Source: an uncultured Chloroflexia bacterium (GTDB lineage: Bacteria; Chloroflexota; Anaerolineae; B4-G1; SLSP01). From it: a DNA stretch of 64,000 nucleotides. The position numbers were made by a program, and so were the translations under genes. This document shows positions 1 through 39,267 of this stretch, one piece after another. How positions within the stretch are numbered: the stretch's first letter is position 1; the number at the start of each line of letters is the position of its first letter. The stretch lies in the NCBI GenBank assembly GCA_963751345.1, contig CAVVUS010000011.1, positions 416,001 to 480,000 of the forward strand. The letters are read 5' to 3'. Under the pieces are notes generated by a model that saw only the letters and a program-made list of their open reading frames with translations, had not been told where the DNA came from and did no database searches.

Positions 1-1326
1 GAGGTCAGCCAGGCGATCACGTCCATTCGCGACCCGGAGCTGCTGCTGATGCAGGTGACCGACCTGATACGGAACCACTTCGTCTATGGGGCCGTGGCTG
101 TCTACCTTGTCCCACCCGGAGGCGGAGAGGCGCGACTGCAGGCGCATGCGCCTCAGACGGCGGCGCCTCAGACAGCGACGCCTCAGACAGGGGCGCTCGA
201 GACGGCCTCCCTCCCCCCGCGCGGGAGCGTTGGGGAGGGGGCGTGGCCGGCGACGGTTCACATCGGCGACAGCTCGGTGGTCGCGGCGACCCTGCGGGCA
301 GGGACGGCCACCGTCCACAACGAGCCGGCACTCGGCGAACACGACTGGTATGCCCGGATGCTCAGCAGGGCGGCCGTCCCGCTAAAGATGGAGGACCGCG
401 TCGTCGGCGCTATCGCGGTCACGGCGACGGTTCACGAAGGCATCGAGCAGGACGAGCTGGAGGTACTGGAGGTGCTGGCGAATCAGGTGACCATTGCGCT
501 GGAGAACGCCCGGACGTATGAGCGCGAGCGTCAGGCGATAGCGCAGCTTGAGGAGGCCGAGGCTTTCAAGGCCCGCTTCCTGGCGAATATGTCGCATGAG
601 CTGATGGAACCTCTGAACACGATCCTCGGGTTCTCCCGCTTGCTCATCAAAGGCGTGGAGGGTCCGCTGAATCAACGTCAGCAGGAGGACCTGGAGCAGA
701 TCCACGGTGACAGCCAGCACTTGCTGGATTCCATCAGGGATATACTATCTATCTCACAGATAGAAGCCGGCCTGCTGGAACTGCGGCTGCAGCCCGTCGA
801 TCTCCGGGAGCTGGTCGCCGGCGTTGTGCCGACGGCAAGCGCGCTGGTTCGGGGGCGAGCGATCGAGCTCAAGTACGATGTACCTGCGGATCTGCCGCGG
901 CTTCGCGCGGATCCTTCTCGTCTGCGGCAGGTGCTGGTTCATCTGCTCAACAACTCGGCCAAGTTCACGGAATCGGGCGAAATCAGACTTCGGGCATGGT
1001 CCGCTGGAGGGACTGGGCGACTTCAGCCGGACGTGGACGGCCGTTGCGTGATCTTTGTCAGCGTGAGCGATACGGGTATCGGCATTCCTGCCGAGGATCG
1101 GGAGCGCATCTTTTCGCAGTTTGAGAAGGGGGGCAAGCGTGCCCGGACGGCGGCCGGCAGCGGGGCGGGCCTGGGCCTTGCGCTCTGCCGCGAGTTTGTG
1201 GCGCTCCACGGCGGTCGAATGTGGGTGGATAGCGAGGTAGGGGTGGGGAGCGTCTTCACGTTCTCCGTACCGGCATACTGCGACGCGGAAGAGGGAAGTG
1301 CCGCTCCCGGTGCAGGCGTGGCCTGA
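1..1326 (+). CDS. GAF-domain sensor histidine kinase (GAF-HisKA-HATPase), 5'-truncated by the window edge
   Basis: Frame is open from base 1 (EVSQAITSIRDPELL...). GAF end LANQVTIALENAR; H-box FLANMSHELMEPLN; N-box QVLVHLLNNSAKFT; G1 DTGIGI; G2 GAGLGL; SEVGVGSVFTF. Confidence 0.92.
   Translation, partial: EVSQAITSIRDPELLLMQVTDLIRNHFVYGAVAVYLVPPGGGEARLQAHAPQTAAPQTATPQTGALETASLPPRGSVGEGAWPATVHIGDSSVVAATLRAGTATVHNEPALGEHDWYARMLSRAAVPLKMEDRVVGAIAVTATVHEGIEQDELEVLEVLANQVTIALENARTYERERQAIAQLEEAEAFKARFLANMSHELMEPLNTILGFSRLLIKGVEGPLNQRQQEDLEQIHGDSQHLLDSIRDILSISQIEAGLLELRLQPVDLRELVAGVVPTASALVRGRAIELKYDVPADLPRLRADPSRLRQVLVHLLNNSAKFTESGEIRLRAWSAGGTGRLQPDVDGRCVIFVSVSDTGIGIPAEDRERIFSQFEKGGKRARTAAGSGAGLGLALCREFVALHGGRMWVDSEVGVGSVFTFSVPAYCDAEEGSAAPGAGVA
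148..207 (+). repeat. 15-nt tandem minisatellite x4 (GCGCCTCAGACGGCG; peptide APQTA) inside a GAF loop
   Basis: Units at 148, 163, 178 and 193, read directly. Confidence 0.85.
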
Positions 1327-1376
1327 GGGGCGACGTGTGGGGTCCGTTCGTAGGTTTCCGGAGAGGCTAAGCATAG

Positions 1377-3375
1377 ATGGCCAAGCGGAGTAACAGGGAT
1401 CGGGAACTGAGGGCATCGTCGCCGGGCCGCGCGTCGCGCAGCCTGCTGCCTGCGATGCTACGTTTGAGTCGAGTCGCAACGCTACTCGCGTTCGTCGTGA
1501 TCTGCGCGTCGATCCTGATGTTCTATCGCGACATGTTGGCCTGGGCCATCCCTCTTGGCGTCATCGGTTTGGTGCTCGCAATCATCGGGGGAACGCTGAC
1601 GCAGAGCCTCCTCATCCCGAAGCTCGCGGCACAGTTGTTCTCAGCACAGAGCAGCTTCCGCTCCGCGCTTGATGATCGCGCGGCGCTGGCGAGTCAGGTC
1701 GCCGGGCTACGGGACGATCGGGATGAGCTGAAGCAGCGTCTCCTGGCGCTGGAGGATGTGCCTGCGCCTCAGACGGCATCCGCGCCTCAGACGGCATCCG
1801 CGCTTCAGACGGAGGCCGCGCCGCAGACGGCGTCCGCGTCGCAGACGGCGTCCGCGTCACGCGATGCCGGATGCCTCCGGGCAGGGGAAACGCGCCGGGG
1901 CTGCGCCGCACGGGACAGCTGCCGCCCCCGATGGGGCGGATGAGATACTGCGATGGGCCGGCAGATTGGCCACCTCAAGAAGCATCTCGGCTCTCTATGG
2001 GGTTGTCAACGAAGCTATGCAGGGCAGCCGGCCGGCGCGCGTGCTCATCGTCTCGGGGAGCGCCAACAGCCAGGGCGGTCAGGCGATCGACGCCGGTATG
2101 GCCGTCGTGAGCGATGTGCAGGACGGTGGTCAGGTCGCGCCCTCGGCTGGCTCGCATCGTGATGATCTATCCTTGATGGCCGTGCATCCGCCCCAACTGG
2201 CTGACCTGATCCTGCTCGGATCGGGACTCTCCCAACCATTGTGGGTCGAGGATCTGTCCTGCGTCGATCCCGTATTGAGCCCCGAACTCGGCGAAGCGCT
2301 CGTCGGCTTGCGGGAGACCACCCTCTTTGGGGCGTTGGCGCTGATTCCGATGCGTGTCGACCTGCAGCGAGAATCTGGAAGCCCGGGGGACCCTTCACTG
2401 AAAGGGGGCGCTTTGCCCCTGGCGCGGGGGGCGGTTATTGCTCTGTTCGGGGCTGCCCACACGTTCGGGCCGGATGAACGTCGGCTCCACGAGTTGATCG
2501 GCGGTGTGTTCGGCGTCACGTTGGAGCGGATGCGCTCGCTGAGCGACACCCGTGCCGGCCTGATACGGCAGAACGATCTGTCGACGATGGGGCGCAAGAT
2601 CCGCCGTGCCACCGGCGCGGATGCCATCCTGCGGATTTCGGTGCAGGAGCTGAGCCTGGCATTGGGGGCATCCCGCGCGGAGATCCGTCTTGACCCGCAG
2701 GCAACTCGCGACGTGATGGGGTACCTTCCTGCAGACGGCTCTGGTGGCCTTCACGTCGTCGTCGCGTCCGGTGCTGGGGTCCCATCTTGTGCTTGGGTCA
2801 CGGACCTGGGCGATGGATGTTGCGAGCTGTGTGCTCCCATCGTGGTGGCGGACCGAACTCTCGGGTCGATCGTCTTTGAGCAAGATCCCGGTGATGAACC
2901 CTGGGGCACGGCGGATGCTGCTCTGGTCGATCACGCGTGCGAAGAGATCGGTCAGGCACTGGGATATGTCCGGCACCTGGAGGAGATGCAGAGCCGTACC
3001 AACTACGAGCACTTGGGCAGGGAGATCGGCGAGCGTCTGCGCGCCGGTGACGGGGCCTCGCTGCGTCTTGGTGGCGACGGTCGCGGTCCGGACGGGGCAT
3101 CCCCCCGACTCTACCGTGACGGGAACACAGCCGCGATGGACGTCGATCGCATTCTGCGGGCCACGCTGGGTGAGTTGGCCTCCGCACTTGGGGCCACCGG
3201 GACGATCACGCTTCATGCACCTGACGGCTGGGTGACGAGCGCCGCAGGGACGGGCGACGAGCCCCGTGTGGGTGAAGCCACCCCGGGCGCGCAGGCCGGC
3301 GGTAGTGACGCAGACGGGGCACAGCCTCCTAGCTTCGACGACGATGGTAGCGGTCCGGATGGAGGCGTGTCGTGA
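1377..3375 (+). CDS. Membrane (2 TM) multi-GAF protein with C-terminal half-GAF; frameshift near 1860
   Basis: ORFs 1377-1943 (two TM helices, coiled coil) and 1756-3375 (two GAF-like units, tail MDVDRILRATLGELASALGATGTITL). GGAGAGG upstream of 1377. Confidence 0.7.
1764..1858 (+). repeat. 18-nt tandem minisatellite x5 (GCGCCTCAGACGGCATCC; APQTAS)
   Basis: Units at 1764, 1782, 1800, 1818 and 1836. Confidence 0.9.
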
Positions 3376-4626
3376 TAGGGTCGCAGCCTCTGGCCATACT
3401 CGCTGTCACCGTCGGGGGTCTATGCCTCGTCCTGGCAATCATCATCTGGCGCCGGCAGGACCGCGCGAGGCACGCAGCTTACGAGGCGGCGTTGCGTCAG
3501 TCAGCCACGGCACTGCGGGATGTCGAGGCGTCAATCGATGCCCAAGTGCAGGCCAGGACCAGGGACCTCCGCCGGCGCTCCGATCTCTTCCGGGGCGCGG
3601 CTGCTGTGGCCAGGGATCTCACCGGGATGCACGACGAAGACGAGTTGATCCATTCTGTCGCCGAGATGATTTGCCGGCGCTTCGATATCGACCGGGCAGC
3701 AGTCTTTCTGACTCCCGGTGGGGTTGGGTGGTCTGCGGAGACGGTGCTCGTGCTAAAGGCCGTGTTCCCTCTGCAGGGACAGGCCTTGCAGGTTGGCGAC
3801 CTGGACCTGGGTGCTGGCCCGGAGAGCGCCGTCTGGGGGGCCTATCGGGAGGGTGAGCCACGGATCAACCACGGTATGGGATCCGAGATCGCGCTGCCAC
3901 TCAGGCTCCAGGACCATGGAGATGCGACAAGCGAGGCCGGGCATTCGCCCCGCTTCCCCAACAGGGGGGCGCGTCATCGGGGTTTTGGACATCCAGTCCG
4001 CGGAGCCCGGGGCGTTTAGCCGTGAAGACCTCGACGTGTTCGGCATCGTGGCCGATCAGCTCGCCTTGGCGATCGAGAACGCGAGTGCGCTCAATGCGTG
4101 CCGCCAGGCCGTCCAGCGGCTCGATATGGCCTACGATACACGGCTGGCGGCCATGTGGCGCGAATCGATAGTGCCCTGGCAGTATCGATTCGACGGTGTA
4201 GAGGTCCACCGTGTTGGTGTCGGCGAGGCCTACGGGGAGCGGGTGGAGCCTCGACCGACCCGCCCGCCGCAGCCCGCCGAGGGAGATTTGGTGGTGCCGC
4301 TATCGCTTCGGGGCCAGGTGATCGGCACGATCGCCCTGAGGCGGAACGGGGAGGCACCTGGATGGTCGCCGCAGGAGCGCGCGCTCGCAGCCTCTGTGGG
4401 CGCGCAGGCCGGGCAGGCCCTGGAGAGTGCACTGCTGCTCAGGGAGAGCCAGATGGCCTTGCTGAGCGAGCAAGCCGCTGAGCGTATCGCTTCCGGGATG
4501 CAGCGGACGCCGGATGTGGACGCGGTCATCCAGACGGCTATGCGAGACCTGCAGGCTCTGTTTGACCTAGAAGCGGTTGAGGTGCGTGTCGATCCGGCCT
4601 CGTCGGCCAAGGGGGAGGCGGGATGA
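3372..4626 (+). CDS. Single-TM GAF protein with degenerate GAF and half-GAF tail; frameshift near 3965
   Basis: ORF 3372-4019 (TM, VQARTRDL, GAF start ...SEIALPL) continues in ORF 3793-4626 (VIGVLDIQS...ADQLALAIENA...PDVDAVIQTAMRDL). GTGA overlap with the upstream stop; G-run at the break. Confidence 0.78.
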
Positions 4627-6717
4627 GTCGCGAGACGACGCAGCCTAACCGTGGACCCGATCGGGCGTCGCTTCGTCTCTACAGAGGCGGGCGCGCGCCG
4701 ATAGTGGGCGGCGGGTCCCGATCCCTCGTACGTGGGTCGGTTCGCCACCGTCTTCGGACCATGTTGCTTGTCTCCGGTGCGGTGACACTTGCGGTCCTGG
4801 TGGCGTTTGCTGTATACACGCTGCTCATTGGCCGCCAGTTGCAGGTGGTTCTGGGGTTAACGAGTGTCTCCGATAGCGTAGCGGAGGCCTCAGAGCAGCT
4901 GGCATCGTCTCGCGCCGGTCTGCTTAGCTACGCCGGAGGCGTGGCCCCCACGCCGGATGAGGCTGTGGCGAGCCTGGATCGCGCCTCAAACCTCCTGGCA
5001 GAGTCTCGCGCCAACGCCGGTCAGGAGTTGGGTGCACAGATCGAGACCCTGCAGCAGGCTCTCGTGGATCATCGAGTTGAGCTGGCAGCGATAGTAGAAG
5101 CATCGCCCCTCAAAAACCCTGTCCCTGAGGGCGAGGGAGTTCTGGCGGCATCGCCCTTGGTGGACGAGGCGGTTGCGTCGAGCCTGGATCTCAACAACCG
5201 GATCGGGCGCGTGGCCGAGGATGTCCGGCAGGCATCGAATGTTGCCCACGCGATGCTGAGACAGCGAGTCTATCTGTTGGCGATGGTGATTCTGAGTCTG
5301 GCCTTTGTCGGCCTCGTCGGCGTCTCGCTCGTCTTCGCCAACACGACAGGGAGTATTGCCCGCGGGATCGAGGCCCTGCACGCCGGTGCCCAGCAAGTGG
5401 CACGCGGCCGGCAGGGCGTCACAATCCCCGTCGAGGGTGATGGTGAACTGGGCGCCGTGGCTGTGATGCTCAACAGGATGTCTTCGAGATTGGCCGTTCT
5501 GGGCAGTCCGGCATCCACGTCGGTGCCGTCCGTGGAGGCGAGGTTGCTTCCCAGCGTCACACGGGGTGCGCAAGCCAGGTCTATGGTGATGCAAGGCGTC
5601 ATTCGGGTCGGTCGCGCAATTGCCGGTCCCCTGGATCTGGCGACAGTCGAACACAGAGCGGCTGCGGAGATCCGCGACACGTTTCTCCTCGACTGGGCCG
5701 GGATCTACCTTGTGGCAGAGAACGGGCGGACGATCGAGTTGCGAGCGAGTGCGGGCGATGTGGGGGGCAATGCTGATCCACAGGAACGACGTCTGGCGAT
5801 CGGCCAGGGCCTGGTGGGAGGCTCTATCGCAGAGGACAAGCTTCGCGGGAGCGCGCTGGAGATGGCAGCCGCCACCGGTGCGGAGGAGTCGGAGCCCGCG
5901 TCGAGAGCCGAGCGGATCACGCGGGTAGCGATTCCCTTACGTGCAGGCGGGCGTGTCATAGGGGCATTGAGTCTGGTCCTCGATCAGGGGGGATCCCGTT
6001 CGACCTCCACTGCGGGCGGTCTCTCTCTCCCGGCGACCCTAGATGTGCTCGTCGCTGAGGCGCCCGATTTGCTCCAGGCGATGGCGGATCTGGTTGCCGG
6101 TGCCATTGAGAGCGCCCGGCGCTATGGGGCGTCGCCGTCGGCCTTGGCCCCTGGGGGCGAGACGTACCGCAGCTTCACCCGGGATGGATGGCGGCGCGTG
6201 TTCGGTGATCGGGCAGCCGAATACCAACTGACCGGGGCCGGCGCTGTGTCGCGCTCGGAAGGCCCATCGCAGCCCGAGCTGGAGCCTGCGAGGGTGTCGG
6301 GCGAGGTCGTGCGGGAAGGACGGACCGTAACCCTTCCCCTCTCGGTTCGGGGCGAGGCCATCGGGGCCGTGCGCCTGCGGAAGGAAGCCTCGAAGACATC
6401 GCCCGGCGAGATCGATCTGGACAGACCACGAGGTCGAGCTCGCGAGGACGATTGTGGCTCGGCTTGGCGTCGCCCTCGACAGCGCGCGGCTCTATCAGGA
6501 CGCGCAGTTGAGTCTGGCGCGGGAGCGTGCGGCGCGTGAGGTCGCGGATCATATGAGGAATACGCTCGACTGGGACGAGCTGATGCAGACAGCGGTTCGC
6601 GAGATCGGTCGTACGGTTCAGGCGTCGCGAGTTTTCGTGCAGTGGGTGCCGCCCGAGGCGGAGTCTGAACACTCCCCCAGTCCGACGACGACCTCCGCGC
6701 CGCAGTACGGCGTCTGA
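4623..6717 (+). CDS. 2TM-HAMP-GAF protein with half-GAF tail; frameshift near 6420-6450
   Basis: ORF 4623-6539 (two TMs, HAMP-like GDGELGAVAVMLNRM, GAF) plus ORF 6454-6717 (LGVALDSARL...LDWDELMQTAVREIGRTVQASRVFV). ATGA overlap. Confidence 0.78.
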
Positions 6718-6758
6718 GCCGCGTACGGCGTCCGAGCCGCGTACGGCGTCCGAGCCGC
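6705..6758. repeat. 18-nt tandem repeat x3 (GTACGGCGTC[T/C]GAGCCGC) spanning a stop codon and intergenic DNA
   Basis: Units at 6705, 6723 and 6741. The reverse complement contains GCGGCTCAGACG, close to the APQT core. Confidence 0.85.
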
Positions 6759-6783
6759 AGCCGCCTGGGATTGAGAGGGAGGT

Positions 6784-9211
6784 ATGAGCCCCGCGTCCGT
6801 TCTGGCTATAGCGCTGCGCGTGCTTGCGGCCGGGGCGGCGGCGGTCGTGATCTGGCTGCTCGTCCGAGCGGCGACCGTTCGTTGGCGCGTAGCGGGAATC
6901 CGGACCCGACTGGCGGTGATCTCGATCGCGTTGGTTCTGGCCGTCGCGGTGGCCGTAGGTGGTACCTCAGTCTTCGTCGGCGTTCGCGCCTCTCGACAGC
7001 GAGCTTTCGACCAGCTCGAGACAGCGGTGGTCCTGAAGCAGCAGGCGGTCGATAGCTGGGTCCATCAACTCTCGTTTGCCCTGGATTCCCTGGTCGTCGA
7101 GGACTATGAGGTCCAGCGAGCGCAGTCGGTACTCCTCGGGAATCTGCCTGAGGATTTCCGCGCGACCGCCCGCCAAGAGCTCAGGACGCGATTCCTCAGT
7201 GTCATCCACCGCACCCAGTGGTTCGACGAAATCTCTCTCGTCACCACCGACGGTGTGGTCGCGCTGTCCACGGATGCCGATCAACAGGGCCGGAATGTAA
7301 CGGGCGCACCGTATTTTGCCGAAGCGTTAACAGGCCCCTACATCACGCCCCCCTATTACGACCCGGTCGCCGGTGGGGCTACGGTCGTCTTCGCGCGACC
7401 ACTCCAACTCGGCAACTACGTCTATGGTATCCTCGCGGCACGTTCGAGTATGGATGGGTTGACGAGAATCACCGGTGGGATGGCTGGCACGGCGCCGGCG
7501 GCCCAGCTGGGGACGGAGGCCTCAGCCGGTAGTGCGACGTATCTTGTCGGGCGTGACTACATCCTGCTGACGGCGCCTGTGCTGGCGGGTGGGTACCTTC
7601 CGGTTCACAGCCCGGCTGTCGATGCGGCTGTAGGCAGTCACGTGACGCTGGGCCGCGGGACGTATACGAACCATCGGGGCATATCGGTCCTGGGTGTCTA
7701 CACCTGGGTACCCAGCCTTGGAGTTGGCCTTGTCGAGGAGCTGACGACCGCCGAGGTGTTGGCCGGTGCGCGGCAGACCTCATACGCCACCGTTGGTATA
7801 GCCGGGCTCGCCGCCTTGGCTGCTGTGCTGGCAACGCTCGTCTTCTCGCGCGGTATCACCAACCCACTGACGGATCTTGCCAGGACTGCCACCCGCATTG
7901 CGGAGGGCGATCTACAGCTTCAGGCCCCTATTGAACGCGAGGATGAGGTGGGTGCTGTGGCCGGGGCTTTCAACGCGATGACGGCGCAACTGCGTGATCT
8001 GATTAGCGATCTCGAACGCCGAGTAGAGGCGCGAACCCGCGGCCTGCAGGCCGTGGCCGAAGTCTCCCGGACGACGACGTCGGTGCTGGATCCGGAATTG
8101 CTCTTGCCCCAGGTGGTCAATCTGGTTCAGCAGCGGTTTGGACTCTACTACGTCGGGTTGTTCCTGTGGGCGCCCGCGCCGTCCGAGGCGCTTTCGCCGT
8201 CTGAGGCGCTTTCGCCGTCCCCTGCCCAATCGTACGCTGTCCTGCGTGCCGGAACGGGAGAGGCGGGCGCCACAATGCTGGCGCAGGGCTGGCGTCTGGC
8301 GGTCGGCGGCGAGTCGATGATCGGGCAGTGCCTTGCTACAGGCGAGCCATTCGTCCTACAGCGGCAGGAGGATAACGTCGTGCGCCTGGCGAATCCACTG
8401 CTCCCTGAGACGCGATCTGAGCTCGCGCTGCCGCTGCGCTACGGTGAGCGCGTGATCGGCGCAATGACCGTTCAGAGTACTGAGGAGGCTGCTTTCGGTG
8501 AGTCCGACATCTCTGTGTTCCAGAACCTCGCCGACCAGGTGGCCGTGGCGGTGCAGAACGCCCAGTTGTTCGCCGAAACCCAGGCTGCGCTGGATCGCGC
8601 TCGTCGCCTCCAACGGCGGTACCAGACTCGGGCGTGGTCCGACTATCTGAGTGACCTGGACGTCACCGGTTACGAACTACGCGCCTCGGACGGCGTAGGC
8701 GCCTCGGACGGCGTGCGGACGCCTCGGACGGGGCGAAGCCGCATACCGGCGACAACGGTCACACTGGAGACGCCGGGGGGGACGACTGACCCGATTGACG
8801 CAAGGAATCCTTCCGGAGGTCCGCGAGGGCTTGGCCCTGGATCACCCGGTTGCCCAGGGCTCCCAGTTACGTATACCCCTTCGGCAGGGCGGGCAGGTCG
8901 TGGGGTTGATGGGCATTGAGCGGGCGTCGGGATGGCAGGAGGACGAGATCGAGCTGGTCCAAGGCCTGGTTGAGCAGCTCACTTTGGCCGCCGAGAATCA
9001 GCGGCTGCTTGACGATGTGAGTAGTCGCGCGGCGATGGAGAGAACCATCAGTGAGATCACATCTCGGGTCCGCGCCGAAATCGAGATAGAGTCGGTGCTG
9101 GAGCGGGCGCTGGCCGAATTGGCGAGGGCGTTGGATGCCGAGCACGGCGTGGCATTGCTGGAGCTCAACGGGTCGCCGGCCGACGGTTCGGATGGGGAGG
9201 ACAGCGCATGA
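6784..9211 (+). CDS. dCache-like/HAMP/GAF membrane sensor with half-GAF tail; frameshift near 8720-8790
   Basis: ORF 6784-8919: TMs, Cache-like PYFAEALTGPYITPPY, HAMP EDEVGAVAGAFNAMT, GAF LPETRSELALPL. ORF 8795-9211 carries the tail IESVLERALAELARAL. GGAGG RBS. Confidence 0.82.
8177..8220 (-). repeat. 18-nt tandem repeat x2.5, reverse-complement copy of the GCGCCTCAGACGG core (reads PSEALS in the gene)
   Basis: CGCCGTC[C/T]GAGGCGCTTT at 8177, 8195 and 8213 (partial). Confidence 0.85.
8681..8735 (+). repeat. Roughly 18-nt tandem repeat x3 (GCGCCTCGGACGGCGT), read in a different frame (ASDGV)
   Basis: Units at 8681, 8699 and 8719. Confidence 0.8.
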
Positions 9212-10960
9212 CCGGGCGGATGGCACGCAGTCAGGTGTCTGAGCGCTTGCGACGGCTGTTCGCGGTCGATGTCTCCGGGAATGGGGCTGAGGGCGCCACG
9301 ACTGAGCGATGCCAGACTTGGAGCCCTCGTGACCACCCTTTCCGCGATGGGTTTCCTGATCGCCGGGGCACTGCTGATCATCGTGGAGGTCGGCCGGCGT
9401 CGGGGCTACTTCGGGTCGGGACGCCAGGTGCTCGTCACGTCCCTCTTTCCCCTGGCCTTTCTGCCGCTCTCGGTCTACTGCTTTGCATTGGCCAAACGGG
9501 GTCACGTGCGCGGCGCTGCGAGGGTCTACGCGTGGACGACCTTCGTCGCGATTGTGCTTGCTGCCGCGCTGTTCAACGGCTACCTGTCGGCAACGTGGAT
9601 ACTGGTGTTCTGGCCCCTGGCGCTGGCGGGCAGTCTGCTGAGCCCGATCCGCGCAGTTCAGTTTGCTGTGGCTGCATTGGCTGCCTATGGCGGGATCTAT
9701 GTGGTCGAACGGGCCGGGTGGTACCGGCCCCCCTTGCCGACCGCACCCGCCGGATTCTCCTTTTTTGCGCTGTCGTTCGGTTGGCTGATGCTCGCCATCG
9801 CCGCGGGCATGGTGAACTACCTGCACGGGCGAAGCCTGCAGGGCACGCTGACCGAGCTCCGCGAGACCTCACGCGACCTGGAGGTCGCCCGACGCGACCT
9901 GGTCGTGCGGGTGGAACAGCGCACGGCAGAACTCAGCAGGCGTGCCGAGCAGTTCAGGGCGATTGCCGAGTTATCGCAGGCGGCGGCTGCGATCCGGGAT
10001 CCGGATGAACTTCTCACGGCAGCAGCAGCATTGATCTCGCGAGAGCTGGACTTCTACCACGTAGGGATCTTCATGCTCGATGGCGGGTGGGCGGTGCTGC
10101 GCGCCGCATCGTCGGAGGGTGGCCAACGGATGCTCGCGCGAGGACACCGCCTCAGGATTGGGCAGCAAGGCATCGTCGGCTATGTTGCGGAGATGGAGAC
10201 GTCCCGCTATGCGTTCAACGTCGGAGATGACGCGGTGTGGTTCAACAATCCCGACTTGCCGAGCACCAAGTCCGAGATCGCCCTGCCGCTGATCATCGGC
10301 GCACGCATCAGGGGAGTGTTGGATATCCAGACGGAGGTGCCGGTCGCATTTGGTGACGAGGATGTCAAGGTGTTGCGCGTCCTTGCCGACGGTATCGCCA
10401 TCGCAATCCAGAACGCACGATCGTTGCAGGAGATCCAGGCTGCGATGGAGCGCTTGGAGCGCTACCAGACGACCGATGTGCTGCAGGCCTGGCGTCGCAC
10501 CCTGGCTCGCAAGGATCTGCGGGTGGGTTACGTCTACACGGATGGGGAGACGATGCGACGCCCGTCCGGCGCAGACCGGCAGCCCAATCACGCGGACGGC
10601 ATCGCGGACGTGACTCAACAGACCACCGAGGACGGTAGCTATCTCCTGCTGGCCCCGGTTCGGGCGGCTGGACGAGACGTCGGGGTGATGTCGTTCGAGC
10701 GAAGCACCCCGTGGAGCGCCGAGGCTATGCAACTGGTCCGAGCCGTCGTGGCACAGCTCGATCTGGCGCTGGAAAACGCCCGACTGTTGGAGGAGACACG
10801 CCGCAGGGCAATGCAAGAGGCAGCGCGTGGCGAGATCGTCGGACGGATCCGGGCGACCGCGAGCACGGATGCTATCCTGCGAAACGCTGCGGAAGAGCTG
10901 GGCCGTGCCCTGCAGGTCGAACGCAGTCGTATTCAGTTGGTGCCGCCCGAGGAGATGTGA
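9208..10960 (+). CDS. Multi-TM (5-6 TM) GAF sensor with half-GAF tail; probable frameshift near 9275
   Basis: ORF 9269-10960: hydrophobic N-terminus, VEQRTAEL, GAF RAASSEGGQRMLARGHRL...NPDLPSTKSEIALPL, tail STDAILRNAAEELGRALQVERSRIQL. ATGA overlap at 9208. Confidence 0.85.
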
Positions 10961-10964
10961 GGTC

Positions 10965-13900
10965 GTGAACCAACAAGGCAATCGGGCCGCACGGCCTGGC
11001 ACCAGCAACCGGATGACGTTGATCGTGGCGGGGCTTCCTCTGCTCTTTCTCGCGCCCCTCCTCATCGGCCTGGGGTGGTACTACCTGGACGCCCATCGAG
11101 AGGACGCCTGGAGCCAGGCTGACCTCGCAACGCTGCAGGTGCGTCAGATCGTCAATGCCCTCACACCGTCTGTCGGTACGATCGAGGATGCGCTTGGCAT
11201 CACGGGTTATCTCGAGGAAACGGCCGGGAACGCGGCGGACTTCGACTTCATCGCCCTGGTGACCTACGATGGCACCGTTCTGGCGCACGCCAGTCCGCTG
11301 GCGCACGCCAGTCCGCTGGCGCATTCGCTCTCCGGCTACCAGGGGCTCAGGGTGGCGGAGTTGGCAAACCTCTACCAGGGGACGATCCCACGGGGCCCGG
11401 TTCAAGATCCCGGGGCTACGCCCACGAGCGGGGTTACCCGGCGCACCCTTCCCGGCGGAGATGTCTATCTCGTCTGGCGCGCCATGGCTATGCCGGGAGG
11501 CAGCGTCTCGGGTCCGGAGGGCCGGCTTTACATCGTGGTGGGTGAACCGGTAAGCGTCGTGGATCTGCCGGTTTACCCGTTCGTTATCGCGGGGGGAGTG
11601 GCCATCCTGGTGATCACCTTGATTGTCCATATGACACTCCGCCTGTTAGTGGTCGAGCCTTTAGGGAAACTCGCCGAGGGCGCTGTTCGCATCGGTGCTG
11701 GAGATCTGGCGCACACGATTCAGTTGGACCGCAAAGATGAGTTCGGGTTCGTTGCCCGTGCTCTTAATGATCTATCCGGCAGGTTTGGGGTCGCCGTATC
11801 AAGCTTGGAGCGTACCGTCGCGTCGCGCACGGCCGAGCTGGAGCGCCGAAACACGCAGCTTCGTGCGGTGAGCCTCGTTGCGCAAGAAGCCACGCGAGAA
11901 CGCGACGTGAACTCGCTGTTGACGACGGCGGCCAGTGCGATCTCCGACAACTTCGGATACTACCACACAGGCGTTTTCCTCGTCGATGACGCAGGGGAGT
12001 GGGCCATCCTGCGGAGTGCCTCGTCGGAGGGCGGCAAGCGAATGCTCAGCCGGGGACATCGGCTGAGGGTCGGACAGGTGGGTATCGTCGGCTACGTGGC
12101 GGCGCGCGGCAAACCGCGTGTCGCCTCGATGGTGGACAAGGACGAGGTTTGGTTCGATAACCCGGATCTTCCCGAGACCCGGTCCGAGCTTGCGCTTCCG
12201 CTGCTCGCGCGACGCCAATCTGCCGGCGCTCGCCAGGCCGATGGCGCTCGCCAGGCTGCTGGCGCTCGCCAGGCTGCTGGCGCCTTACCCTCCGTCATCG
12301 GCGTGCTCGATGTCCAGAGCGTTGAGATGGCAGCGTTCACGGAGAGTGACATTGCCACGTTGCAGCTCATGGCAGATCAACTGGCCGTGGCCCTCAACAA
12401 TGCCCAGGCCAATGACCTAATGGAAATGGCTCTGGCGGAGCTGCGTGATCTGCAGGTTGACTATGGCCAGAGGGGTTGGGCAAGGGTCGCACGGCGCATG
12501 CGCCCGATGGCCTATGAGTACGATCGTGCCTCCACGGTGCCGGTGCCCCCTGTTCCTATACCTCCCGATCTGGCGGAGGGCCGGATCTTGTCCGGCGTGG
12601 TGATGGATGGGGGAGTCCCCACGATCCTGGAGGCGCTTCGCGTTGGAGACCGGACGCTCGGGTACCTGGGTCTGACCGACGCCAACCGGGTCTGGGCGGA
12701 GGACGAGCTGGCCCTCGTCAGAAGCGTCGGCGAGCAGGTGGCCCTGGCGCTCGACAATGCGCGGCTGTTCGAAGACACCCAGCGCAGCGAGCGCCAGCAG
12801 TATCTGATCAGCCGCATTCTGCAGGCGGCTGCGGCGCCTCGGACGGCGGAAGCGCCTCAGACGGCGGAAGCGCCTCAGACGGCGGAGGCGCCTCAGACGG
12901 CGGAGACCGAGACGGGACAGCGCCCCGTCTCCGCGACCGCCGGCGATGGCCGGGAGCCGCAGGCGGCAACGGTGCTGCGTGAGATCGCGCGAGTACTGGC
13001 CCAGGGACTCAATATGGCGGTGGTGATCTTCACCTTCCCCAATCCGGGACGCCCCGTAGTTAGGTCGCACGCCGTCATCGACCCCAGCGGCGAAAGGCTG
13101 CCGCTCTTTGAAGAGGATCTGACGCTATCACCTGAGCATTTCTATTTCTTCCATGGTCTGGCAGATCCGGAGTTGGGGCCTCTGGCTCCACTCTTGGAGG
13201 GCTCGGATACTCTCCGTCGGCATCGTGCCGATCCCGCTGCCTCTCAGCCGGACGACAGCTATCTTGGAGCGTTGGACCGTTTCGACACCGATCGCGTGCT
13301 CTATGTGCCGATCGCCCAGATCTCGCAGAGTCGCATCCGCGAGGGCTTGAATGTGGCAGCGTCGCGAGCGACGGCAAGTCGCAGCGGTTTCATCGCCCTG
13401 ATCCCGGTGCGCGACGCTCCTCCGGTGGATCCCGACACTCGTGAGTTGGCCCAGGATCTCGCCAACCAGGTCGCCGTGGTCCTGGAGAACCTGAACCTGT
13501 CCGAGGAGACCCGTCAGCGTTCGGAGGAGTTGCGCGAGCTTTATCGGATCTCGCTGGAGCTCGCCGAGATCCTTGAGCCCGGGGAGGTGCTTGCCCGCCT
13601 GATGGTCCGGGGCACGGCCCTTCTGGGAGCAGACGCTGCCAATCTCTGGATCTATGACGCTGATGCGGGTGGGCTGGTGCCGGCGTCTCGATCACGTTCG
13701 TTGGGACGCAGAAGACGGGGACGCGGCGCGAGCATACCGACGGCGAGGGAAGGGTACCCGCGGCGCCGGTTGTCCGTCCGATTCGGTTGGGACGCGACTT
13801 GGCGGACGAGGCGCTCGACCGGCAGCAGACGGTCTACACGCCCGATGTCGCCGCGCAGGGAGAGTTGAGTGATGCCGCAGGGCCGTTCCGATCCTTGATG

Positions 13901-16003
13901 GCAATCCCCTTGTCGGGCGGCTGGGTCCCCTGGGTGTGCTCGTGGTTATGTCGGAGGAGACAGGGGCCTTTGGCCCGCGAGACGCGGGACTTGCCGGCCT
14001 CTTCTCGGCTCAGGCGGCGGCGGCCCTCGAGAACGCGCGCCTCAATCGGGAGGCTCAGCGACGGGCTGAGGAGTTCTCTCAGCTCTACGATGCAGGCATC
14101 GACCTCATCACGATCCTCGATGTCGAGGATCTCCTGAACAGATCTGCCGACTGGGCCCGGCGTGTGTTCGCTGCCGAGCGGGCGGTCGTCTTTCTGCGAT
14201 CTCCCGGCCGGGGCGCCGGACGATATCTGCGCGGGCAGATGGCGGATGGGGCGCAGAATCTGTTCGATCCGGAGACAGACCAGCCCAGCTCTGATGGGCT
14301 AACCGAGCATATCATCACTACGAACAAGAGCATCATTGTACGGGACAACCGCGAATCACCGCTGCCCAGTGCGGCACGCCTGGTCGAAGCCGGGCTGTTC
14401 TCGCAAATGGGGACGCCCCTGCGCGTCGGCGATGAGGTGATTGGCGCGCTATTTGTGAATGGGGCGGAGGCGGACCGGTACGGTGACCGGGATCTGAATC
14501 TCCTGGAGTTCCTGGCGACGCAGATCTCTTCCGCGCTGCAGAACGCCATCCAGTTCGGCCAGACCGAGCACGCGTTGGCGCTCGTGGGGCGACAGGCACG
14601 CTACCAGACCAACGTCTCTCAAGCGGTGGCATTGCTCAACGAGCTGGGCACCGATGCCGGTCCCGACGTGCTGCGGCTCGTTGGAGAGGCCGCGGGGGCA
14701 CAGGAGGTGCTCTACTACACGGCCGGCCAGGGTCGCTGATGGGTCAGAGAATGGCGACGTTGAGGGCGTCGTCTGGCGGCTGAAGAGTGCCTGGGTTGCT
14801 GAGAGGGTAGATAGCCCGTCGCCGGTGACCTCGCCATCAGGTCTCCTCTCGGCGAAGGATTTCCCACGCTGGCGGAGGTCTCTGGAGGAGGAGGGCTACT
14901 GGGCCTCGAACGGGGCCGGTCGATCTCCCGCGTCTCCCTTCGACGCTGCGCTGTGCCTGGGTCTGGCCGTGCCGGCGGAGGGTTCGTGTCCGGGCTTTCT
15001 CGCTCTGCTGAGTGACGGCGATGTGCCGTGGGAGAAGCAGGACATCGTCGCGCTGCAGACGGTGGCGGCTGCTTTCTCCAACACGTCGGCGCGGGAAGCG
15101 CTTTTCCGGCAGGTTGAATCCACGCTTAGCGAGACGGATGCCCTGTACAGGGGCAGCGCAGCTTTGAGCGAGGCCCGCACCTACGACGCCATTCTGGAGA
15201 CCCTGTTGCAGCATACCGTTCTCGGTGAGGGTTCGCAGAGAGCCACGCTTGAGCTGTTCGACCGGCCGTGGGCCGAGGCTACGGTGCCCGAGCCCTACAC
15301 CCGCCGCCCTGCCGAGGAGGGCCAGGCGACAGGGATACCTCAGGACTCGGAAATCGTGGCCTACTGGCCTATGGGTGAGAGCATTGAGATACGCGCACGA
15401 TACGCCGGGCGCAAGTTCCGGGCGCTCTTGCGCGCGCTGGAAGCAGGCGCACCCGTCTTCATAGAGGACCTTGGGAAGGTTGGGCTGGATCGTCCCCATA
15501 CAGACGAGCCTCCTGACCCCGCGCGCGAATCGCTCGTGCTGGACCGAAGGGCACTGGCCCTGTTTCGGAGGGCGCTGGGGGCGGAGAGCGTCATCTTTGT
15601 GCCGCTCACCGTGGGAGGCCAGAAGATCGGGTTCCTGCACGCCGACTATGCTTCTCCCCGGACGTTCTCGGATGCGGCGCGACGTCGTCTGGTCAGCCTG
15701 GCACAACAGGCGTCCGTCGCGGTCCTCAACCTGCGGCAGCTTCGCGAGACCGAGGCCCGCGTGAGGAGAGAGCAGTTGATCCGCCGGATTACGGGTCAGA
15801 TCCAGGAGGCCCCGGACGTGGAGGGCGTTCTGAAGACCGCGGTGATGGAGCTTGGGCGAGCCTTCGGGACACCGCGGGGCCGGATCCTGTTCCGGGAGCC
15901 CGAGACGGCCCACCGGGGTATCTCGACAGCGGATACGGACCCGGGTGGTGGTGGCGGGCCGAGCCAGCCCGATGACAAGCGCGGGAAGGGCACCGATTTA
16001 TGA
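10965..16003 (+). CDS. Large 2TM-HAMP multi-GAF protein without output domain, half-GAF tail; several frameshifts (about 13680-13790, 13930, 14730)
   Basis: ORFs 10827-13868, 13787-14137, 13936-14739 and 14654-16003 form a continuous GAF series. HAMP RKDEFGFVARALN; ends PDVEGVLKTAVMELGRAFGTPRGRIL. Confidence 0.75.
11280..11323 (+). repeat. 18-nt tandem repeat x2.5 (CTGGCGCACGCCAGTCCG; LAHASP)
   Basis: Read directly. Confidence 0.8.
12225..12283 (+). repeat. 18-nt tandem repeat x3 (GGCGCTCGCCAGGCTGCT; GARQAA) in the GAF beta-hairpin loop
   Basis: Units at 12225, 12243 and 12261, between ALPL and VIGVLD. Confidence 0.85.
12834..12905 (+). repeat. 18-nt tandem minisatellite x4 (GCGCCTCAGACGGCGGAA/G; APQTAE)
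   Basis: Units at 12834, 12852, 12870 and 12888. Confidence 0.9.
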
Positions 16004-19000
16004 AGCGCGCGAGCAGAAGCCGGGCCGTGCTTCTCGATGAGGTGAGAGACCTTCGGGAGCAGCTTGCCACGTTCTCGGGAGATGATCTGGCGACCACCGT
16101 CCGGCTGGTCCAGCCACTCATCGATGCAATACCGAACCCGATCTACTACAAAGCCGCGAACGGCGTCTACCTGGGCTGTAACGCTGCCTTTGCCAGGGAT
16201 GTGCTGGGGATAACCCGGGATAGGATTGTTGGCTGCACCGTAGCCGATCTGGCCGACGCGGTCCCTGCGGAGCTTGGCGACCTGCACGACAGGCAGGACA
16301 TCGCCCTTATGGCCTCGCACGGGACGCAGGTGTTTGAGGCGCCTGTCAGGTTCGCCGATGGATCTGAGCGTGACGTCCTCTTCAGCAAGGCCGTGCTTGA
16401 GGGGCCCACGGGCGGGATTGCCGGTATGGTAGGGGTTATGGTCGACGTGAGTGCCTACAAGTCGCAGGAGACCGGGCGCGACGCCGATCTGCTCGATGCA
16501 CAGCGACGGGCCACGCGTCTGCAGGTGGCCGCCGAGATCTCGCGGGCTGCATCCTCACTGCTTAGCCTTGATGAGCTGCTCCCGAAGTCCGTGAATCTCA
16601 TTCGCGATCGCTTTGACTTCTACTACGCCGGCATCTTCCTGCTCGATGAGCTCTCCGAATGGGCAGTTCTGCGCGCCGGAACCGGCGAGGCCGGCAGCAA
16701 GATGCTGGCTGCCGGGCATCGGCTGCTGCGCGGCGGCGATTCGATGATCGGCCAGTGCGTGGCCACCGCCGAGCCCCGCATCTCGCTTGACGTCGGCGAA
16801 GTGGAGACCCGCTTCGATAATCCCCTCCTTCCGGAGACGCGCTCGGAGATGGCGCTTCCCCTCATCAGCCGGAACAGGGTGATCGGAGCGATGACGATCC
16901 AGTCCGACCAGGCGGGCGCCTTTGCCGAGGAGGATATCACGGTCCTGCAGACGATGGCCGACCAGCTTGCCAACGCCATCCAGAACGCGCATCTCTTCGA
17001 GCAGATGGATGAGGCGGTCCGTGAGAACGAGATGCTCTATAACGTGAGTACCGCCGTCGGGGACGCCCGGTCACTGGAAGGCGTGCTGCAGGCGGCAGTC
17101 GACGTAGCGGCCTTCCTGGCGATGGACAGTGCTGCGCTCTGGACGTTCACGCGCTGGGATGCAGAAGGCGTGCCTGTGGCGGCAGATGTGCATACGGAGA
17201 CCTTGCGCCAGGCCGGAGCCGCGGATTTCCAGGAAGAGCAGGGCATAGCCTTCGACCGGGATCTGTATGGCTGGCTGTTTGCCGATCCCAGGCGCATCCA
17301 CGCTTACGCGGACCTGGGCGAATCGGCGGACCTGCAGGTCGTTGCGGGGGCAGCACCTGAGCTTCCCCCCCGGCAATCCTGGACCCCATGCGGCGTCAGG
17401 GGAATCGCAGCCTGATCGCCGCCGTGCTGGTCTCGCGGGAAAGACACCAGGGCGTCCTGATGTTGTATGGCCCCCAACCCCTCAAGGCGCTCCCCGATCA
17501 TCACGTCCAGGTGTTCGCTCGGTCGCTGGCCGATCAGGTGGCTTCGGTCCTGGACCGCCATGCGCTAGCTGCGGAGGCGGCGCGGCGGGCGTCGCAATTG
17601 GCCGCAGCGGCTGAAGTCTCGCGCGCCCTCTCGGCATACCTCGACTTGGAGCAGTTGCTGTCGGTGGCTACGTCACTCATCCAGGATCGTTTGGGAGTGG
17701 CCTACGTGGGTGTCTACGTGCAAGGGGAGGCGATCGGGACTGCGCCTGCCGGCCTGGATTTGCGGGCCGGGAGCGGCGACACAGCAGGCCGGTGGGATCC
17801 CGAAAATCCCCCTGCCTGGATCGGCAGATCCATCGGCGAACGCCGAGTCATGCGCAGCAGCTCGCCGCACTCGGAGAAGGCGAGCCGGGCGTGGGGAGCC
17901 ACGCCGAGCCTTGCAGCCCTCCCGCTTATCAGCCACGGCGAGGCGGTCGGTGTCGTAGTCATTGAGGCTGCGACTTCGGCGGCGCTCGACGACAATGATG
18001 TGGCGATCTATGCGACGCTTGCCGATCACCTGGCCAATGCGATTGTCAATGCCCGGCTGTTCGCGTCCTCCCAGGCGAGCCTCGAAGAGCTGCGTCGCCT
18101 GCAGCAGCAGTACGCTATGGGTATGTGGCGAGACTACTTGGCGCATCAGGAAGTCCTCGGCTATGCCTATGATCGTGAGGAGATTCTGCCGGTGGAAATC
18201 CCGGGTGCGACGGAGGGAGATGAGAGCCCGGAGCTCGCAGCAGCCGGGTCGTGGGAGCGGACCCTCGAACGTCCCCTGCATATCCGGGGCGAGACCGTCG
18301 GGGTGATGAGCTTCGGCGCCCCAGACGGCGTCGGCGACGCCGGAAACCCCGCCGGCGTGGTCAGAAGACCAGGTCGCGGTGCTGGAGGCCGTCCGTGAGC
18401 AGCTCGAATTGGCCCTGGAGAACCGGCTATTGATGGACCGTTCGCAGCGCTCGCTGGCGGAGACGAGGGCGCTCTATCGGATCGCCCAGCAGATCACCGA
18501 CGCCCGCGACACGACATCCGTCTTGCGGGCCGCAGTAGGGGGCATCTCCGTTCGTCAGTCTGAGGATACGGCGGTCGGGCCGGACTACGTCATAGCAGCG
18601 CTGCTTGAGCCCCGGACCGGCCCGAACAGGCTTCGCATCGTAGCCTCGCAAAGTCGCTCCGGCGACCCTGCACCGGTGGATGGCCTTTATTTCGATGATG
18701 TCCGCCGGTTCTATGAGGTGCTGCGCATCGAGGACCGGTTCATCACGCCGGATGTGAGCGGGAATCCTCTGTTCGGGGAGGGCATGCGGCGCTTCTTCGA
18801 GGAGTTGGGCATTCGTGCGACGGCGGCGTTTCCGCTGAGGGTTCGTGACGCCTACTATGGCACGATGATGGTCCACAGCGAGAGCGTTCGGGAGTTCACG
18901 GCCGCCGAGCTGAGCTTCTATGAGAATGTGGCGCGGCAGGCCTCGGTGGCGCTCGACAACCTCAGCCTTGTGGATGTCACCCGCGCGCAGGCCGAGCGTC

Positions 19001-21093
19001 GCGACATTCTGAACCAAGTTCTGCGTATCGCTTCGGCTTCCCTGGATCAGGCCACGATCGTCGGCGATGTCGGCGAGGCGCTCTCCCGGCGGCTGGATCG
19101 AGCCGTGTTGACGTGGGAGCACACCAGGACCTCAACCCGCCCGATATCGGCACACGAGGCCGGCGGCCGACGTATACCGTTTGAGATGTTAGACACCCAG
19201 GTCGTCGGGCCCGGTTGGCTCCCGGTGGCGGAACTGTGCTCGGCATGTGGCCGAAGGGGGCGAGCCGGCGATGTTGCGCCTTCGTGAGTCCGCAGAAGAC
19301 GGGGAACTGCCCCGTCTCTACAGTGGAGAAGGGGCACCAGATGGAGCACCGCCCAATCTACTCCTGGATCTAGTCGATGCGTATGCCGTGCCCCTCGCCG
19401 CGCGCGATACGGTCTACGGCGCGATCGTTCTCGGACGCCAGAACGGCCAGGAGCCCCTCGACGACCTGGAGTGCGAGTTGCTGCAGGTGGTGGGCACCAG
19501 TGTCGGCACGGCTCTGGAGACTGCAGCACTCTATCGGGATGCCCAGGAGACGGCTGTCAAGCTCAAGGAAGTCGACGACCTTAAGAACCAGTTCATGGCG
19601 AACATGTCCCACGAGCTGCGGACGCCGCTGAACTCTATCATTGGATTCTCCCGGGTGATGATCAAGGGCATCGATGGGCCGCTGACCGACATGCAGGAGA
19701 CGGACCTGAACGCGATCTATGACAGTGGGCGTCACCTGCTGAATCTGATCAACGATATCCTCGACATCTCCAAGATCAATGCCGGCAAAATGGAGATCAT
19801 CTTCGAGGCCATCGACCTGCGGGAGATGGTGCAGAGCGTTATGTCGACGGCCCTCGGTTTCGTCAAAGATCAGCCGATTGCCCTGCTGACCGACATACCG
19901 GATGACTTGCCACTCGTCGTGGCCGATTCACGCCGGATTCGACAGGTGCTCATCAACTTGCTGGGCAACGCGGGCAAGTTCACCGACAAGGGCTTCATCA
20001 AGGTGTCGGCTACCTACGACGACTACCAGGTAATCGTCAGCGTCCAGGATACCGGGATTGGCATCCCGCCCGACCGGATCCACGCCGTTTTCGAGCAGTT
20101 CGAGCAGGTCGACTCTACTTCGACGCGGCGCTATGGCGGTACGGGACTGGGCATTCCCCTTAGCCGGGAGTTCGTCCTCATGCACGGCGGCGATATGTGG
20201 ATCCAGGAGACCGTGGTCGGCCAGGGCACGATCTTCTGCTTTTCCCTGCCTCTCGGCGGACCCGAGGTCCGGCCTGAGGAGAACCGCCAGGAGGGGCTCA
20301 GCTTCATTCCGGCGCCGGTCTGCCCGGGAATCGAGGTGGGGTCTCCAAGGTTGTTCTCACGGTCGACGACGATGCGGGCGTCGTGACACTGTTCCGCCGT
20401 TACCTGGAGAAACAGGGGTATCGCGTCTTTGGCCTTACGAATGGGACGCGCGTGGTAGACGAGGCCAGGCGCCTCAGACCGTATGCGATCACGCTCGATG
20501 TCGTTATGCAGGATGAGGATGGGTGGTCCATCCTGGAGAGTCTCAAGGCGGATCCGGAGACGCGCGACATCCCAATCATCCTGTGCTCCATCCTTGGCGA
20601 CAAGCACAAGGGGCTGAGCATGGGGGTTGCTGACTATCTGGTCAAGCCGATCACCGAGCAGGATCTGCTTGAGTCGCTGGCTCGACTGGACACAGGATCT
20701 GGCCGCGGGCACGTGCTCCTCGTCGACGACAATGCTGGGGACAGGAAGTTGTGGCGGCGCATCCTCGAGGATGCCGGCTATCAGGTCGTTGAGGCCGGTG
20801 GCGGCGCTGCTGCAATCGACCACATTCACACAGCGCGCCCATCCGCAGTCGTTCTGGACTTGATGATGCCGGAGGTCGATGGGTTCCAGGTACTGGAGCA
20901 GCTTAAGGCAGACCCGAACACGCGTCAGGTGCCCGTCATCGTGGTCACCGCGAAGGACCTTGGGACAGAGGAACGTAGCAGGCTGCAGTTGCGAACCGTG
21001 GCGCTGCTACAGAAAGGGTTGTTCGATCAACAGCAACTCCTGGCCGACGTCGCCTCTGCGCTTGCTCGCGCCGACCATGCTCGGGTCACCTGA
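16000..21093 (+). CDS. Cytoplasmic hybrid histidine kinase: PAS, multiple GAF, HisKA, HATPase, two REC domains; frameshifts near 17370, 18350, 19240, 20340
   Basis: ORFs 16000-17415 (PAS LIDAIPNPIYYK..YLGCN; GAF), 17388-18398, 18379-19287, 19247-20386 (MANMSHELRTPLN, NAGKFT, DTGIGI, GTGLG) and 20383-21093 (ITLDVVM; VDDN...LDLMMP). Confidence 0.85.
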
Positions 21094-34830: not shown

Positions 34831-34947
34831 ACTGCAGCTATGTCGTAGACACGACTGGTGGGTAATAGGAGCACTGAGAACCATTTTGCTCAGTTGCTCG
34901 TTTTGTTTCTAGGGGCCGTGTGGGTCCGATCTGCTAGGGGAGGAAGA

Positions 34948-39267
<4,320 letters not shown>

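Follow-up and report, generated by a model that had tools for sequence, protein, structure and literature searches.

A conserved truncated GAF tail on six output-less receptors encoded beside a soluble hybrid histidine kinase in an uncultured Chloroflexia bacterium

The window analyzed here is a stretch of 64,000 nucleotides from an uncultured Chloroflexia bacterium (GenBank assembly GCA_963751345.1, contig CAVVUS010000011.1, positions 416,001 to 480,000). Its positions 1-21093 carry eight co-directional genes in an operon-like arrangement on the + strand: a membrane HAMP-GAF kinase (K1), six receptors without output domain (A to F) and a soluble hybrid kinase (G) (Table 1). The receptors share a terminal segment of 49 residues, the start of a GAF fold, which is the subject of this report. 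As expected from the original prediction, stop and start codons overlap at four junctions, as GTGA at 3372 and as ATGA at 4623, 9208 and 16000. For gene E a start at 9208 requires the removal of one base near 9306; in the sequence as assembled the long frame begins at 9269. A further GTGA at 20383 was discarded as a junction; it is a frameshift artefact, since relatives encode the kinase together with the two receivers in one frame.

All 18 open-frame pieces of positions 1-21093 were scanned with Pfam at an E-value of 0.01 or below. In the six receptors the scan named solely GAF, HAMP and dCache domains, apart from two sub-threshold chance matches. A GAF domain above the cut-off (PF01590, PF13185 or PF13492) was found in pieces of all six and in their intact orthologues. 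HisKA plus HATPase_c, the pair expected of a sensor histidine kinase, was found in none of the six, and cyclase, phosphatase, DNA-binding and chemoreceptor signalling domains were absent from the whole of 1-21093. MCPsignal, CheW and CheA had no match in the window pieces or, at an E-value of 0.001 or below, in a single-contig genome (G063). Sensor domains alone were also detected in four orthologues from another relative (G010) and in 11 of the 12 receptors of G063 (MASE11, dCache, HAMP, PDC and GAF), the twelfth spanning two loci and lying outside the scan. The claim that the six receptors lack a recognizable output domain was thus upheld, both in the window pieces and in intact orthologues, and the varied input regions (one or two transmembrane helices, HAMP, dCache-HAMP or several transmembrane helices) are as described according to Pfam and the transmembrane scan.

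Each receptor consists of a variable sensing head, a HAMP domain or signalling helix, a complete GAF, a five-stranded GAF-like domain (mini-GAF) and the tail. In receptor E, residues 383-483 form a Trp-containing helix and the five-stranded mini-GAF. Receptor A deviates from this plan, as an internal tail-type start heads a small complete GAF (frame 1732-3372, residues ~273-410) ahead of the terminal tail, which is itself preceded by a 29-residue insert. Among the receptors examined this arrangement occurred only in gene A and its orthologue from one relative (G002), and it shows what an untruncated version of the tail looks like. Relatives of gene E are numerous (1196 at an E-value of 0.001 or below among 8000 candidates scored), and the full-length ones are about as long as gene E. 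Where named, they are called "GAF domain-containing protein" and belong to Anaerolineae or Thermoflexales; two are instead named GAF-containing methionine-R-sulfoxide reductase. NCBIfam gave far-sub-threshold partial matches only, and the clusters of the protein atlas are labelled just "GAF domain-containing protein".

HisKA and HATPase_c were detected in positions 1-21093 solely in K1 and G, in agreement with the proposed pair of flanking kinases. One correction applies: the upstream K1 is itself a membrane HAMP-GAF kinase. Its open frame begins upstream of the window and comprises 865 residues in the contig, with two transmembrane helices, a periplasmic part, HAMP, GAF, HisKA and HATPase_c, the HAMP domain being seen in the G010 orthologue. 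Response_reg matches were confined to 20383-21090. Relatives have gene G as one uninterrupted frame of 2217 or 2257 residues, in which HisKA, HATPase_c and the receivers stand in one protein, as in a hybrid histidine kinase.

The six tail strings given in the original prediction were all recovered from translations of the + strand. Thirty tails aligned nearly gap-free over 49 positions. With hhalign, columns 1-47 of the tail matched columns 7-53 of the cluster's own complete GAFs (probability 85.8, E 5.3e-6), which comprise the signalling helix, the first helix and the first strand. The best matches of the tail profile in the PDB were the N-terminal 45 residues of phytochrome-type (Cph1/cyanobacteriochrome) GAFs, namely 6oap (8.9e-11), 8w26, 2lb5 (Cph1-type), 6oza/6ozb, 3oov and 6bhn. 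Both results show the original assignment of the tail to the opening of a GAF fold to be right, and by its profile matches the tail belongs to a particular GAF lineage, the phytochrome type. The complete fold of ~130-150 residues with its five- or six-stranded sheet is missing; only the first 45-47 positions are present, and Pfam recognized a GAF in just one of the 30 isolated tails. No C-terminal GAF half able to complete the tail was found in the clusters examined. The terminal strand is fixed within each orthologue group and differs between paralogues (RSRIQL, RGRILF, VFVQW, GVALL, VEVRV and TITL). A resemblance of the tail helix to a HisKA H-box, noticed by eye only, was dropped because the tail contains no conserved His and the match to GAF starts is significant.

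A tail model built from gene E orthologues alone matched just this cluster, while after four rounds the model had merged with ordinary GAF starts; for this reason rounds 1-2 were taken as the specific tail model. In round 2, 36 of 41 matches ended at most 60 residues from the frame end. Of the five exceptions three were significant, two being the internal complete small GAF in gene A and in its orthologue and the third a tail extended by 63 residues; the remaining two were not significant. In this genome significant tail matches near the frame end (five genes, 11-41 residues before the end) were confined to the cluster, the gene A tail lying 58 residues before the frame end with an E-value of only 0.009. 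The genomes of 27 relatives yielded 219 matches in 33 loci, 201 of which end 0-38 residues before the stop codon; the 18 left over mark the beginning of ordinary GAFs and mostly score lower. Alignments of 22 and of 73 gene E relatives all end a few residues past the shared strand. Across 73 gene E orthologues the tail is the best-conserved segment, with a mean majority-residue fraction of 0.86 for the tail strand and 0.81 for the tail helix, compared with 0.76 for the first GAF (GAF1) and 0.47 for the membrane part. With this degree of conservation the tail is under strong purifying selection. The pattern is far beyond chance, and these data show that the tail is a conserved, selected terminal module. 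A wide profile of mini-GAF plus tail, run over protein representatives, was unspecific (163,069 proteins at an E-value of 0.001 or below), with giant multi-GAF proteins in the top ranks. When the best 150 giant representatives were re-scanned with the narrow tail model, 26 of them also ended in a tail, and all 12 giant tail-ended proteins checked contained only GAF, PAS or MASE11 domains.

Such a terminus could arise trivially if the tail stops were assembly errors or if the genes were decaying, functionless kinase fragments. Positions 1-21093 contain at least 11 frameshifts, which split each gene over two or more frames (Table 1), and the essential gene rpoB is likewise split, into frames of 723 and 624 residues (outside the window, contig C10:143888-147659), which points to a general indel error rate in the assembly; rpoC (window 34858-39267) is whole. 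The frameshifts are single-base assembly errors and not biology, because intact orthologues from two relatives (G010 and G003) align across every break. Runs of five to seven G or C residues lie at several breaks (3965, 8775, 17370 and 19260). The breaks were also checked against contigs from four public metagenome runs (X1-X4) of four studies, 90-99% like the window. This check reached 8696/8698, 9306, 14738, 18338 and 19245, the remaining shifts being not covered or not listed, and each one-base deletion in a metagenome contig joins the two frames in the direction demanded by the orthologues. The X3 and X4 contigs covering 18338 do not carry the deletion at that exact place; over 18265-18469 an X4 contig has a single gap and is otherwise identical to the window. 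None of the frameshifts, however, falls at a tail stop, and intact orthologues in short-read and closed genomes, two single-contig genomes included, stop at the equivalent place. The purifying selection on the tail also speaks against decay. Assembly errors at the tail stops had been named among the findings that would overturn the original prediction; this explanation, like that by decay, is already refuted.

Tandem repeats of 18 bp also lie in frame within the coding genes of the cluster, where they encode hexapeptide repeats; the core of most is palindromic and GC-rich. Period 18 is the commonest tandem period in the genome, with 126 arrays, seven of them inside this 21-kb cluster. A palindromic GC-rich core was present in 47 of the 126 period-18 arrays versus one of 119 period-12 arrays. 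Since contigs of relatives skip the array at 1776-1866 or lack one 18-bp unit at 12842, the copy number varies between strains.

Table 1. Genes, frameshifts and 18-bp repeat arrays of the receptor locus. Positions refer to the window; the last column gives the metagenome runs in whose contigs one base is missing at the site.
Feature	Position	Strand	Content, context or evidence	One base missing in
K1, 3' part of membrane sensor kinase	1..1326	+	Pfam, transmembrane scan, full contig frame, orthologue	
Receptor A	1377..3375	+	two transmembrane helices, GAF-like region, one small complete GAF, tail ~3130-3213	
Receptor B	3372..4626	+	one transmembrane helix, GAF, mini-GAF, tail 4444-4590	
Receptor C	4623..6717	+	two transmembrane helices, HAMP, GAF, mini-GAF, tail 6499-6645	
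Receptor D	6784..9211	+	dCache, HAMP, GAF, mini-GAF, tail 9014-9160	
Receptor E	9208..10960	+	five transmembrane helices, signalling helix, GAF (residues 243-381), mini-GAF, tail 10793-10939	
Receptor F	10965..16003	+	two transmembrane helices, HAMP, several GAFs, tail 15746-15892	
G, soluble hybrid kinase	16000..21093	+	PAS-GAF(n)-HisKA-HATPase_c-REC-REC (REC, receiver); Pfam; single gene in relatives	
Frameshift, gene A	within 1732-1940, where its two frames overlap		at or just after 18-bp repeat array	
Frameshift, gene B	near 3965		G6 run	
Frameshift, gene C	near 6410-6420			
Frameshift, gene D	near 8696-8698		within 18-bp repeat array	all four runs (at 8696/8698)
Frameshift, gene E	near 9306		one-base insertion; parts ATG 9208 from long frame starting 9269	X3
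Frameshift, gene F	~13700-13900			
Frameshift, gene F	14738			X1
Frameshift, gene G	near 17370		C7 run	
Frameshift, gene G	18338			X1
Frameshift, gene G	19245			X1
Frameshift, gene G	~20300			
18-bp repeat arrays	148-196, 1764-1856, 6694-6758, 8177-8220, 8681-8731, 11280-11323, 12200-12283, 12822-12905; also 27813, 31102			

The distribution of the array was investigated in an even draw of 401 Chloroflexota genomes. The tail was found at an E-value of 1e-7 or below in 41 genomes, 31 of which contain arrays with 2-13 tail matches and 10 a single match; in one Anaerolineae family (f4) all 24 sampled genomes possess an array. For 28 of the 31 array genomes the best match to the hybrid kinase shares contig and strand with the array and lies 2.5-10.5 kb downstream from the tail listed nearest to it. 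In one genome (G026) it lies on another contig, and in two (G051 and G270) adjacency is not visible in the listed coordinates. A distinct top group of kinase matches (E-value of 1e-217 or below) coincides with the array genomes. Consequently, the anticipated co-occurrence of the array with one type of hybrid kinase was confirmed, and these results show a tight linkage of the array to one downstream hybrid kinase that is conserved across the class. In two single-contig genomes from other families (G063 and G278) the order runs from a stand-alone receiver through 12 or 10 receptors to the hybrid HK-REC-REC kinase, after which comes a receiver fusion of ~557 residues. The G063 kinase carries PAS-PAS-GAF ahead of HisKA. 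Directly after it, an N-terminal pyridoxal phosphate (PLP)-dependent enzyme (Pfam PALP) is fused to a receiver (L019:7002-8669, - strand); in the G278 fusion, at the same position, the receiver part was detected. In one relative (G016, L015) a ParA/MinD-like frame (2125-2964) and a repeated frame of ~350 residues (1069-2121 and 7189-8268) were noticed by eye in the translations among the receptor genes; a further relative (G020, L017) looks likewise.

An AlphaFold model of gene E from 73 sequences (mean predicted local distance difference test score, pLDDT, 83.8) exhibited five transmembrane helices, a long signalling helix and GAF1. These were followed by a long Trp-containing helix, a five-stranded mini-GAF without lid helices, helices 484-530 and 533-548 and an unstructured end (pLDDT 55-69). 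Foldseek matched this model to single GAFs (template modelling score 0.7-0.8 on the target) and, less closely, to chains of tandem-GAF or GAF-PHY type. A second model, built from 149 paralogues and limited to the mini-GAF and tail, gave one helix (104-168) and a coil end. A homodimer fold of gene E residues 385-563 in two copies scored 0.07 and 0.08 (mark 0.42). The possibility, raised as a refutation of the original prediction, that the tail folds as a self-contained cis domain does not agree with the two models, which leave an unpacked helix. As neither packs the tail onto its own protein, the tail is free for a partner.

On this basis we tentatively propose that the receptors are co-sensors for the co-operonic kinase and that the tail is their probable output element. 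The receptors would act as dimers in which a conformational signal passes down the helical spine to the terminal stub. The stub would contact the soluble hybrid kinase or a complex containing it, by strand donation, helix packing or otherwise, and many membrane inputs could thereby be pooled into one phosphorelay. This contact through the tail is a guarded prediction from synteny. A bolder form of the proposal is less likely: that the truncated GAF is a dedicated, paralogue-specific coupling element which joins a single soluble hybrid kinase to membrane receptors numbering up to a dozen or more, in a chemoreceptor-array-like system built entirely from GAF modules without CheW and CheA.

Several results weigh against the proposed coupling. 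Far more genomes contain hybrid kinases of this general type than contain arrays: a HisKA-HATPase-REC-REC profile matched at an E-value of 1e-80 or below in 172 of the 401 genomes, versus 41 with the tail (the 172 include G165, G058, G247, G364 and G193, which are flagged unpublished and enter no other claim). The completeness of the kinase GAFs was judged from the best-scoring of up to six Pfam GAF stretches per kinase; these span the model end to end (3-136/136 and 2-136/136) and therefore offer no slot for a donated strand. Neither a half-GAF acceptor nor a GAF without first strand was found among the Pfam-scored kinase GAFs of the clusters. That the strands differ by paralogue and are fixed by orthologue argues against one common docking site. 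Finally, the top covariation pairs join the tail helix, its second helix and the strand to one another, and only one of the top 40 pairs connects the strand to the mini-GAF helix. This covariation was calculated as mutual information on paralogues and is confounded by subfamily structure; it fits a self-folding or intradimer unit. The original idea that the tail docks on the kinase or donates a strand to it is thus not supported. Because the evidence weighs against a strand donor, two other roles of the tail stay live rivals.

In the first, the tail is a structural cap. Its second helix would fold back on the signalling-helix coiled coil and its strand would latch near the mini-GAF, so that the spine is closed off in the receptor dimer and any output leaves via another surface, for example the GAF domains. 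The concentration of covariation inside the tail (C-terminal half of the signalling helix, second helix and strand), the conserved strand of each paralogue and the break between the two tail helices in the first AlphaFold model agree with such a cap. The strand, however, is packed in neither model, the second model contains a continuous helix, and the best conservation of the whole protein would not be expected from a mere cap. We regard this role as possible and rather unlikely.

In the second role, the flanking kinases would pair with the receptors, as kinase-dead paralogues, in mixed dimers that rely on the closely related GAF and helical spine. The receptors would tune the kinase as alternative subunits, and the tail would merely replace the missing next domain. 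GAF1 of the receptors is 38-57% identical to the first GAF of kinase G (tblastn), K1 shares the head-HAMP-GAF plan of the receptors followed directly by HisKA, and a tail-type start heads a full GAF within ordinary kinases, outside arrays, in all three single-hit genomes examined. Mixed dimers are nevertheless improbable, as 10 or 12 receptors face one kinase in the two closed genomes, no K1-type kinase lies upstream there within the stretch analyzed, and kinase G is a soluble protein, unlike the membrane-bound receptors.

The additional genes of the same two genomes, the receiver-only gene before the array and the receiver fusion after the kinase, bring a third possibility into view: the receptors might act on a stand-alone receiver, on the fusion of PLP-dependent enzyme and receiver, or on an unlinked protein. 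Both genes are absent from the window and its genus-level relatives, whereas 28 of the 31 array genomes retain the hybrid kinase, which makes this explanation improbable as well.

The usual picture of two-component signalling pairs one sensor kinase with one regulator, and chemotaxis is the main known case in which numerous receptors share a kinase. If the proposed co-sensor function is correct, the array would be a second, unrelated solution built from GAF domains and would add a new design principle to those known for integrating signals. Many proteins would then also gain a function: the 201 with a terminal tail counted in 27 genomes and the giant tail-ended GAF proteins carry at present only the label "GAF domain-containing protein". 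The idea would be directly testable if G063 and G278 belong to cultured strains, which may be the case. Judged on titles and abstracts, searches of the literature on GAF proteins of Anaerolineae and Chloroflexi, on MASE11 and on output-less GAFs found no description of the system. Apparently, this is a conserved but unstudied signalling layout.

Three known systems invite comparison. Tandem-GAF and GAF-PHY modules (PDE2/5/6, bacteriophytochromes, Cph1 and cyanobacteriochromes) resemble the receptors in the gene E model and in the tail profile match. In those proteins, however, the GAFs are complete and an enzyme follows, whereas in the receptors the final GAF breaks off once its first strand is complete, and nothing comes after it. 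The array resembles the chemotaxis system of methyl-accepting chemotaxis proteins, CheW and CheA in its numerous membrane receptors, whose heads vary while the cytoplasmic module is constant; they possess no enzyme of their own and are encoded beside a shared kinase. Unlike that system, the genes scanned here contain no MCPsignal, CheW or CheA, the receptors do not classify as methyl-accepting chemotaxis proteins, the kinase belongs to the HisKA-type hybrids and GAF domains make up the constant module. The third system is NreA-NreB-NreC of Staphylococcus carnosus. According to PMC12423327, the GAF-fold protein NreA forms a complex with the kinase NreB and prevents phosphorylation of its regulator NreC. 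NreA is comparable as an output-less GAF-fold sensor that controls a co-encoded histidine kinase by complex formation. NreA is a single soluble GAF, whereas here 5-13 membrane receptors per genome carry a GAF, a mini-GAF and a truncated third GAF, and their link to the kinase is known from synteny. By analogy, NreA is a precedent for a GAF-fold co-sensor that acts on a kinase by contact.

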